Source: a virus | Taxonomy: Duplodnaviria > Heunggongvirae > Uroviricota > Caudoviricetes | Virus record (IMG/VR): IMGVR_UViG_2859827302_000002 | Length of the DNA: 38,307 nucleotides | Direction: 5' to 3' (one strand) | In this document: positions 16,571 to 17,628 of the stretch, in pieces | Numbering within the stretch: position 1 is the stretch's first letter | Layout: each line of letters starts with the position of its first letter | The notes under the pieces: model-generated | What the model was told of the DNA's origin: nothing | Database searches by the model: none | The model's input: only the letters and a program-made list of their open reading frames with translations | Position numbers and translations under genes: made by a program

Positions 16571-17628
16571 ATGAACGTGAACTGTCCATTATTCGTGCCC
16601 TGGGAGAAGAATTCGCCACGGTGCTGGCGGATTTACAGCGCACATTTGAGGAGAAGATGAGCGCGCAGGCACAAGCGTTTGAAGAGAAACTGGCTTCCCT
16701 GTCCGCTCTGTTACAGAAGCATGTGACGGTGGATGAGGTTAGCCCTGTTCTGCAGGCGATGGTGGATGACGCAGTGGGGGCCATTCCGCTACCGCGTGAT
16801 GGTCACGATTATGATCCGGAAGTACTGAAGCAGGCGGTGAATGATGCGGTCGCGAAAATACCGGTGCCGGCAGACGGCAAAAGTATCACCCCCGATGATG
16901 TGCGTCCGATGCTTGAGCAGATGGTGAAAGAGGCTGTAAGCCATATTCCTGTTCCGCGTGATGGTCGTGACTACGATCCGGAAGTACTGAAGCAGGCGGT
17001 GAATGATGCGGTCGCAAATATTCCGCAGCCGGCGGACGGTAAAAGTCTCACCCCGGATGATGTGCGTCCGATGCTTGAACAGATGGTGACGGAGGCTGTA
17101 AGCCATATCCCTGTTCCGCGTGATGGTCGTGACTACGATCCGGATGTTCTGCAGAAGGCGGTTCTGGATGCGGTGAGTGCCCTGCCGGCTCCGCAGGACG
17201 GGCGTGATGCCACGGCTCTGGAAATACTCCCCGCCATTGACGTTCAAAAATCCTTTCCCCGGGGCACGTATGCCACACACCAGGGCGGACTCTGGCGGGC
17301 GTATGAAAAAACGCACGGGATGCGGGGATGGGAATGCCTGGTTGACGGGGTGGCGGATATTGACGTCAGCATGACGGGTGAGCGGTTGTTCTCTGTGGTG
17401 GTCCGGCAGAGCAGTGGCCAGCGTACGGAAAAAACATTTTCCCTGCCGGTGATGCTCTACCGCGGTGTGTTCAGAGCCGGTGAAACCTACCACCCCGGCG
17501 ATACGGTGACGTGGGGGGGCTCGCTGTGGCACTGCAACAGTATGACCGAAGATAAACCCGGAGAAGCTCATTCATCAGCCTGGACCCTGGCTGCAAAACG
17601 TGGGCGGGATGCAGGAGGCGGAAAATGA
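16567..17628 (+). CDS. phage structural protein with tandem 54-aa repeats and C-terminal carbohydrate-binding-like motifs
   Basis: 353 aa; 162-bp tandem repeat (16795..16956, 16957..17118, partial third); C-terminus has two aromatic-rich CBM5/12-like motifs (GDTVTWGGSLWHCNSMT). Confidence 0.5.
   Translation: MNERELSIIRALGEEFATVLADLQRTFEEKMSAQAQAFEEKLASLSALLQKHVTVDEVSPVLQAMVDDAVGAIPLPRDGHDYDPEVLKQAVNDAVAKIPVPADGKSITPDDVRPMLEQMVKEAVSHIPVPRDGRDYDPEVLKQAVNDAVANIPQPADGKSLTPDDVRPMLEQMVTEAVSHIPVPRDGRDYDPDVLQKAVLDAVSALPAPQDGRDATALEILPAIDVQKSFPRGTYATHQGGLWRAYEKTHGMRGWECLVDGVADIDVSMTGERLFSVVVRQSSGQRTEKTFSLPVMLYRGVFRAGETYHPGDTVTWGGSLWHCNSMTEDKPGEAHSSAWTLAAKRGRDAGGGK

Follow-up and report, generated by a model that had tools for sequence, protein, structure and literature searches.

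A repeat-stalked accessory protein encoded beside the portal gene of lambdoid prophages and its probable tether to the portal tail

The 38,307-nucleotide (nt) sequence IMGVR_UViG_2859827302_000002 (Caudoviricetes), called the window below at its full length, is a decayed lambdoid Escherichia coli prophage of the long-tailed Stx-phage type. This study concerns one gene that survives in the dead prophage as an intact relic: an open reading frame (ORF), here called X, between the genes for an HK97-family portal protein and a gp6-like head-tail adaptor. Judged by its sequence, X belongs to a very large and uncharacterised family of putative accessory virion proteins of HK97-type siphophages and prophages. 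Its N-terminal helix is followed by an acidic helix-turn stalk and then by an all-beta C-terminal domain, which is conserved and has two hairpins like those of carbohydrate-binding module 5/12 (CBM5/12). Copy-number changes in a 162-bp tandem repeat alter the length of the stalk alone. Because of gene fusions, gene overlap and co-evolution, X is probably tethered to the C-terminal tail of the portal. We tentatively place it inside the head, as a knob held on top of the portal, a location that we favour slightly over that of an external neck fibre.

Link between X and the portal

In the window, X begins in an ATGA overlap on the portal stop codon (TGA) and ends in a second ATGA overlap on the adaptor start, and its Shine-Dalgarno sequence is weak. 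An overlap with the portal stop, of 3-67 nt, recurs in most of 62 loci, and X stands directly 5' of the adaptor gene, Ad1, in all lineages examined. Whether the portal and X are encoded separately turns on a G run shortly before the X start: five Gs, as in the window, leave the two genes split, whereas with six the portal frame continues into X, and the N-terminal helix of X is then the part joined to the portal tail, at the junction '...KAMFRGDTEKMTERELS...'. Exact scans of IMG/VR found 39 fused (G6) and 34 split (G5) contigs. The state of the run tracks haplotype, with only 2-3 switches, as expected of stable lineage-linked alleles, and the run as a fast phase-variation switch was thereby ruled out. 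Among the E. coli loci, the portal is intact in 33 fused alleles and broken in 1, against 24 and 7 of the split ones (Fisher p=0.023). Phage 2851, which we take to be a transducing Stx2c phage, encodes a portal-X fusion of 859 amino acids (aa); in BP-4795 and in FSL SP-016, a Salmonella phage, the two genes are separate.

Fusions have also arisen independently, in Pantoea and metagenome phages (L144/P0146) and in a metagenome-assembled genome (MAG) of Acidobacteria, where X has a collagen stalk (L164). Two lineages, L076 and L144, are both fused though their synonymous sites are saturated (proportion of synonymous differences, pS, 0.70), and the ratio of non-synonymous to synonymous rates (dN/dS) in the fused C-terminal domain is ~0.07. 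On these two values the fusion is old, stable, compatible with function and under purifying selection. An artefact or a sign of decay was ruled out as its explanation by phage 2851 and by the ancient fused lineage under such selection. Several portal-X fusions were thus found, and no X-adaptor fusion was seen among the X homologues and the loci retrieved by their portals.

The portals themselves differ according to whether X is present. X-positive portals carry a tail of 44-80 aa, made of a linker rich in Pro, Ser, Ala and Asp and a terminal amphipathic helix, whereas most X-negative portals end 13-41 aa after the 'YLQQQNY' helix of the crown. In the window, the last ~55 portal codons encode this disordered tail and terminal helix, which co-occur with X. 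The identity of the X C-terminal domain also follows that of the portal (Spearman 0.63, p=7e-8; means 0.52 vs 0.55), a pattern that fits a co-inherited structural partner of the portal rather than a mosaic host-range tip.

Other modules are found at the same place. In Acinetobacter (three species; L151, L153, L154) and Snodgrassella (L128, L130), a lone CBM5/12-like hairpin closes the portal, ~20 residues past the crown tail. It is homologous to the second and last hairpin of X, and no X gene apart from the portal was detected in these five loci. A second, unrelated fibrous module, a coiled coil with a short collagen-like stretch and the motif 'H.W.GT.L.F', overlaps the portal stop in L140 (6181..6789), and the same coiled-coil/collagen-like module, together with a beta domain, forms the tail of the portal ORF of L163.

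The tandem repeat and its variation

Tandem Repeats Finder reports a single array in the gene, with a period of 162 bp, 2.3 copies, 89% matches, no indels and a score of 595, far above chance expectation. The array is read in the frame of X. Identity between copies 1 and 2 is 89.5% at the DNA level and 90.7% at the protein level, and their codons differ by 9 synonymous and 5 non-synonymous changes. The 54-aa unit is itself compound, with related sub-units of 25 and 29 aa that each consist of a 'PxPxDG' turn and an amphipathic helix, and degenerate units on both sides of the array extend the repetitive stalk to about aa 56-210. A sequence-only reading of this DNA had described an in-frame 162-bp tandem repeat at 16795-17180 in a head-module protein and had proposed that its number can vary by slippage. 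The computed limits (16792..17162) lie a few bases from these, and the frame, the 54-aa consensus and the placement among the head genes, between portal and adaptor, all agree with that description.

The proposed variation is also borne out. E. coli relatives hold 0.3 to 6.3 units, and megablast matches in phage records are 900, 1062 or 1224 bp long. Intact X proteins from IMG/VR and phage loci measure 245 aa (n=2), 353 (10), 405/407 (30), 461 (5), 515 (1) and 569 (1), a series in 54-aa steps in which every variant stays in frame. One haplotype with identical 836-bp flanks holds X proteins of 353, 407, 461 and 569 aa; because identical flanks hold different copy numbers, the change is frequent and recent. 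It is length variation and not phase variation, as no repeat variant from 245 to 569 aa shifts the frame, and it can have come about either by replication slippage or by unequal recombination. A role for the repeat as a head-length ruler in prolate heads was rejected: the head of phi330 (Pankowvirus) is isometric, ~55 nm, and stalk length varies among near-identical phages. The repeat is also a likely cause of assembly breaks, because most X homologues in protein databases are labelled 'partial'.

Domain structure of X

An AlphaFold2 model of X was built from an alignment of 106 family members. It predicts a confident N-terminal helix and, in the stalk, helices of 13-17 residues between 12-residue loops at a predicted local distance difference test (pLDDT) score of 50-70; the helix-turn units are amphipathic, with an hh..hh pattern. 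The C-terminal domain (aa ~221-345) is modelled with high confidence as all-beta and is neutral in charge, with G212, G241, G254, W255, G261, D312, P331 and L341 invariant. The limits of these parts are given in Table 1.

The sequence-only reading had also seen motifs like those of carbohydrate-binding modules at the C-terminus and had suggested a fibre-like protein. The shape fits: an N-terminal helix, a repetitive stalk and a compact C-terminal domain, with a true collagen triple-helix stalk in homologues. The resemblance to carbohydrate-binding modules holds for the hairpins of the tip, through fold and profile matches, among them matches of the second hairpin to All3316 and chitinases, but it stays below threshold in the window protein, where Pfam CBM_5_12 (PF02839) scores 21.3 bits (E 2.8e-4) against a gathering threshold of 26.2 bits. 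Among homologues, P0130 scores 28.6 bits, above the threshold, and P0146 22.6 bits. X further differs from CBM5/12 in having two hairpins within a 140-aa domain with an inserted beta-meander; glycan binding is a candidate function. Searches of the PDB and NCBIfam with X found no relative beyond the CBM hairpin. X alone gave no match to the portal domain (PF04860 / TIGR01537) and none in NCBIfam, and on these searches it is not a portal protein. Weak Pfam matches in the stalk (FliG_N, TetR_C_35, DUF4244 and others) and matches to designed helical-repeat structures in the PDB were set aside as composition artefacts of the helical repeats.

Within the C-terminal domain, H238 and C257 are nearly invariant across the family, and Cys323, beside His322 in the window, is the consensus of a 'SLWHC' motif (nt ~17278..17535). 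These residues could form a metal site or a disulfide.

Table 1. Features of ORF X and its neighbours in the window, with their positions and the basis of each assignment (AF2, AlphaFold2; pI, isoelectric point).
Feature	Position	Strand	Note or basis
ORF X, 353 aa, portal-adjacent fibrous accessory protein	16567..17628	+	Family and synteny
N-terminal amphipathic helix, aa 1-55, predicted portal-proximal end	16567..16731	+	AF2 helix 3-50, pLDDT 87-95
Acidic repetitive stalk, aa 56-210, pI 4.3, 25-/29-aa helix-turn units	16732..17196	+	Model, sequence analysis
162-bp tandem repeat proper	16792..17162	+	54 codons per unit, frame always kept; Tandem Repeats Finder, copy comparison
Conserved all-beta C-terminal domain, aa 211-353, family-defining	17197..17625	+	Alignment; AF2 pLDDT 96-98
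First CBM5/12-like aromatic hairpin, aa 232-249, RGTYATHQGGLWRAYEKT	17260..17313	+	Sequence, alignment, fold matches
Second CBM5/12-like hairpin, aa 298-346, YRGVF..GDTVTWGGSLWHC...W.LAAKRG	17458..17604	+	Pfam CBM_5_12 at aa 303-325; profile match
G5 run, 12 nt 5' of X start	16551..16555	+	G5, split portal and X (window); G6, one portal-X ORF
HK97-family portal gene, pseudogene here	15206..16570	+	GAG to TAG (Glu codon in intact relatives) at 15704..15706
gp6-like head-tail adaptor (Ad1), translationally coupled to X	17625..17951	+	Synteny
S78 protease-major capsid fusion gene, degraded	13088..14994	+	Indels, stops

The X family

An exhaustive search with the C-terminal domain retrieved 5,580 representatives of clusters at 50% identity at E<=1e-3, and 2,037 at E<=1e-10; the family comprises at least 5,580 such clusters. 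Nearly all members have 200-550 aa, with the conserved domain at the C-terminus. Searches of the PDB and NCBIfam found no solved structure and no model that covers the family, and literature searches yielded no description of the protein. A newer Pfam entry, PF28083, is listed for X homologues.

The N-terminal helix and the C-terminal domain are kept across the family, and the stalk between them is hypervariable in kind and length. It may be built of helix-turn units, of 'LPxPEPLPDI' units (~30 copies in P0146) or of collagen G-X-Y repeats, as in P0130 (Pfam 3e-21), L164 and L135 (~470 aa, Pfam 6.5e-80). Since collagen stalks imply trimers, we infer from these homologues only that the stalk of X may also be trimeric.

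The order portal, X, adaptor is conserved in distant relatives. In 80 loci retrieved through their portals (42-71% identity; many Proteobacteria and beyond), the X domain is present in 62 and absent from about 15 despite ample downstream sequence. At least seven X-negative loci (L114, L123, L125, L128, L130, L131 and L132) have an adaptor-sized ORF of 85-103 aa that begins at the portal stop. Because about 15 of these 80 related loci lack it, X is a common but dispensable accessory. A fusion of S78 protease and capsid protein accompanies X in those relatives whose upstream genes were examined, and the module with X occurs in ~23% of complete E. coli genomes and in long-tailed Stx phages.

One locus stands apart. 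In L135, a siphovirus-type prophage in a Burkholderiales MAG, the interval between portal and adaptor (6328..10794) holds a gene like the 'bead' gene gp80 of podophage GP4 (PF23140, 5e-11), one for a Gly/Ala-rich repeat protein of 271 aa and one for an X-like protein of 753 aa, which contains the collagen stalk of ~470 aa. This may be a bead-chain neck-fibre cluster outside the podo- and myophages.

Location of X in the virion

The C-terminus of the portal follows the crown, which faces the interior of the head (PMC10359639), and C-terminal barrels are known in other portals (PMC11445570). The window-type portal aligns with HK97 gp3 (8CEZ/8FQL) up to a 'PPLxGGD' motif near the gp3 C-terminus. 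Because the module is fused 20-50 residues past this inward-facing crown, we tentatively favour a location inside the head. In split alleles such as that of the window, the N-terminal helix of X would dock non-covalently on the C-terminal tail helix of the portal, and in other lineages one extra G or the loss of a stop codon would make the link covalent. X would then be present at roughly the stoichiometry of the portal; four trimers per dodecamer is arithmetic only. The repeat units would build a rod-like or tether-like stalk, freely variable in type and length, and we speculate that the knob binds a conserved internal partner, which could be the capsid's inner face, the protease/delta region or the DNA. 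Stalk length would be nearly neutral, because internal sites could be reached whatever the length of the stalk.

Several observations weigh against this placement. We know of no intracapsid fibre that is collagen-like or tipped by a carbohydrate-binding module. The ~470 aa of G-X-Y in L135 would exceed 100 nm as a triple helix, far beyond the width of the head, and the X-like genes of L135 and L140 adjoin genes for external fibres (the homologue of GP4 fibre I gp80 and a tail-fibre-like protein). CBM5/12 on collagen stalks is common in viral proteins generally taken as external fibres, and neck fibres with distal carbohydrate-binding modules have been solved (PMC10966104). The acidity of the stalk is awkward beside packed DNA. 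X keeps its own Met in fused alleles, so free X could persist by internal initiation. The contrast in portal-tail length is modest (Mann-Whitney p=0.03) and ignores kinship. No proteomic or structural datum for X was found in any virion, and the phi330 virion mass-spectrometry paper, text and supplement, holds no data on X. The phi330 record shows extra frameshifts in X, which were not used as evidence of dispensability, as this is a manually assembled Sanger sequence.

In a possible but somewhat doubtful alternative, X is an external neck, or portal-vertex, fibre. Trimeric stalks would then project from the head-tail junction and carry the CBM5/12-like tip to a widespread glycan, with the tip aiding reversible adsorption or retention at a surface and stalk length tuning the reach. 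A coiled-coil or collagen stalk with such a tip is what tail-fibre tips look like, X has its place in the neck block of genes, coupled to that of the adaptor, and external neck fibres exist in GP4 and A-1(L), that of A-1(L) with a distal carbohydrate-binding module. Further points in favour are the neighbours of X-like genes in L135 and L140, the accessory distribution and the rapid length polymorphism, and the very long collagen stalks would sit more easily outside the head. What speaks against an external fibre is the repeated in-frame fusion to the portal C-terminus, past a crown that points inward, when no fusion to the adaptor was seen; these fusions would have to be tolerated through free X made from its own start, or through a portal tail that reaches outside in this clade. 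In the hairpin-only portals, a linker of ~20 aa is not long enough to reach beyond the head. From Enterobacterales to Acidobacteria the tip diverges in step with the portal, as typical receptor-binding tips do not, and the window-type locus has no gene for an anchoring ring such as the 15-mer of GP4 or A-1(L).

An unlikely reading makes X an assembly factor with a transient role: tethered to the portal and acting much as a scaffold, it would bring in the protease-capsid fusion protein so as to start the procapsid, and would be cleaved or expelled at maturation. Scaffolding proteins share its elongated, helical and acidic character, the phage type examined lacks a scaffold gene of its own and has a capsid protein fused to its protease, and X is coupled to the portal and co-evolves with it. 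However, about one fifth of related modules do without X and presumably assemble all the same. Scaffolds are not known to have collagen stalks or CBM-like tips, and free variation in length would be odd for a nucleation device.

A further proposal, compatible with each of the others and itself improbable, is that the homopolymers at the end of the portal gene act as a ribosomal -1 slip site, so that both alleles would make a mixture of short portal and portal-X. Runs of five Gs and six As fall in the last 20 nt of the portal ORF (16551..16567), and a -1 slip on either would join portal and X in frame. If tRNA-Gly slipped in this way on the G5 run, the product would be identical in sequence to the protein of the G6 allele; rare codons surround the run in most other alleles (AGG GGG AUA ... 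AGA), and both types of allele persist in nature. The site departs from the canonical X XXY YYZ heptamer, though; G5 and G6 behave as ordinary stable alleles, and distant lineages differ in overlap length and share no conserved run.

The decoration or surface protein suggested by the sequence-only reading, which we weighed as a capsid-wide decoration or head fibre in many copies, accounts for the fibrous shape, the CBM-like tip and the position among head genes but is very unlikely, because the X start, with its weak Shine-Dalgarno sequence, overlaps the gene of the low-copy portal, fusion and co-evolution are with the portal and not with the capsid protein, the X gene does not adjoin the capsid gene and the crown points inward; a surface location as such is uncertain. 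That reading was to fall if the repeat were invariant and an internal role confidently assigned; the repeat varies, and an internal location is plausible without being confident.

A wider and tentative proposal is that the disordered C-terminal tail of HK97-type portals serves as a general site for docking or tethering fibrous modules. The candidates are X, the coiled-coil/collagen/beta family of L140 and L163 and the bare CBM-like hairpins.

Comparison with known systems

Several known systems resemble X in part. The neck fibres of cyanophage A-1(L) and podophage GP4 are, like X, flexible accessories of the portal vertex, and that of A-1(L) bears a carbohydrate-binding module at its distal end. 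They are bead chains on a 15-mer ring around portal and adaptor, however, they share no sequence homology with X, and they sit on the outside of the adaptor, whereas X is assigned to the inward-facing C-terminal tail of the portal. In the window and in the E. coli phages, X is the only gene between portal and adaptor, so no anchoring ring of that type was found there; a gp80-like gene in this interval was found in L135 only.

The portal barrels of P22-like and N4-like phages (e.g. residues 620-721 of DEV gp80) are elongated extensions that run from the crown into the head, and X in fused alleles is likewise a C-terminal extension of the portal. Each barrel subunit contributes one continuous helix to a 12-helix tube, whereas X, usually a separate gene, has helices that are Pro-rich and interrupted, or else collagen, and ends in a globular beta tip; its length varies wildly.

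T4 fibritin (wac) is a segmented helical rod with loops between its segments and a small C-terminal folding domain, and is encoded beside neck genes. X shares the segmented rod, the small C-terminal domain and the position of the gene, but there is no homology, and fibritin binds the outside of the neck by its N-terminus and is not known to be fused to the portal.

SPP1 gp7 and Mu gpF (MuF) proteins share with X a gene placed directly 3' of the portal gene. They are non-essential, low-copy, portal-bound head proteins with a modular C-terminal end (PMC5576092). No MuF domain (PF04233, PF06152) was detected in X at E<=0.1, and the pattern of conservation is reversed: MuF proteins keep the N-terminal domain and vary the C-terminus.

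The host prophage

The late genes of the window run in the order small terminase (TerS), large terminase (TerL), S78-protease/HK97-capsid fusion, a small ORF, HK97-family portal and X, followed by the gp6-like adaptor, a head-closure protein, a gp10-like protein, the tail terminator and the tail genes. TerL (11363..13024) is intact. The capsid fusion gene has two 1-nt gaps, lacks ~20 bp near reference position 1004-1026 and has many stops in every frame. Three insertion sequences are further evidence that the prophage is dead: an IS1 transposase in the major-tail region (19744..20226), an IS66-family element with a TnpB-like gene and a 532-aa transposase just 5' of the tape-measure gene (21789..24083, minus strand) and an IS3-family integrase-core ORF upstream of the late genes (5205..6361, minus strand).

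The side-tail-fibre gene (34316..35881) encodes a phage_tail_N domain, a collagen repeat and a Peptidase_S74 intramolecular chaperone; its G-X-Y repeat (35294..35460; 63 bp, 2.7 copies) is a second length-variable fibre stalk in the prophage. The small-terminase ORF (10800..11366) contains a 27-bp tandem repeat (11243..11296; 2 copies, 85%). Upstream of the lysis and late region lie a DNA N6/N4 methylase (1081..2130) and a 564-aa SASA/DUF6645 protein (3200..4894) that resembles sialate O-acetylesterases, presumably of the NanS-p type of Stx phages.

Annotation and significance

Current annotation of this junction is misleading. X alone is labelled 'portal protein' in PHROGs (phrog_1289) and in several GenBank records (e.g. 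the LC567837 CDS); such labels, like the RefSeq 'frameshifted portal', derive from fused alleles. In NZ_CP062876 (E. coli O157:H16), whose 461-bp junction is 100% identical, a single 'phage portal protein, frameshifted' pseudogene (IMP69_RS11530) covers both portal and X, and a Hafnia homologue of X is named 'phage gp6-like head-tail connector protein'. The entries with annotation problems are phrog_1289, phrog_2271, WP_279078520.1 and IMP69_RS11530 of NZ_CP062876. Annotation in the RefSeq style would pass over the TAG in the window portal and mark just the 'frameshift' where the portal meets X. The mislabelling touches thousands of E. coli prophage annotations, including those of Stx1, Stx2a and Stx2c phages. 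The 162-bp in-frame polymorphism is a fast-evolving marker that could separate near-identical lambdoid prophages.

Accessory fibres at the portal vertex and C-terminal extensions of portals are already known; literature searches found no description of the X family or of fibrous modules repeatedly tethered to the portal tail. A recurrent, selectively maintained fusion of a CBM-tipped fibre with a collagen or coiled-coil stalk to the inward end of the portal is not expected from current models of the portal vertex. If the portal tail is a general dock, many temperate siphophages would hold unseen fibres inside the head, above the crown; alternatively, the portal tail would reach outside and hold neck fibres by a kind of anchorage so far undescribed. 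In each case the portal vertex would gain a new structural principle.

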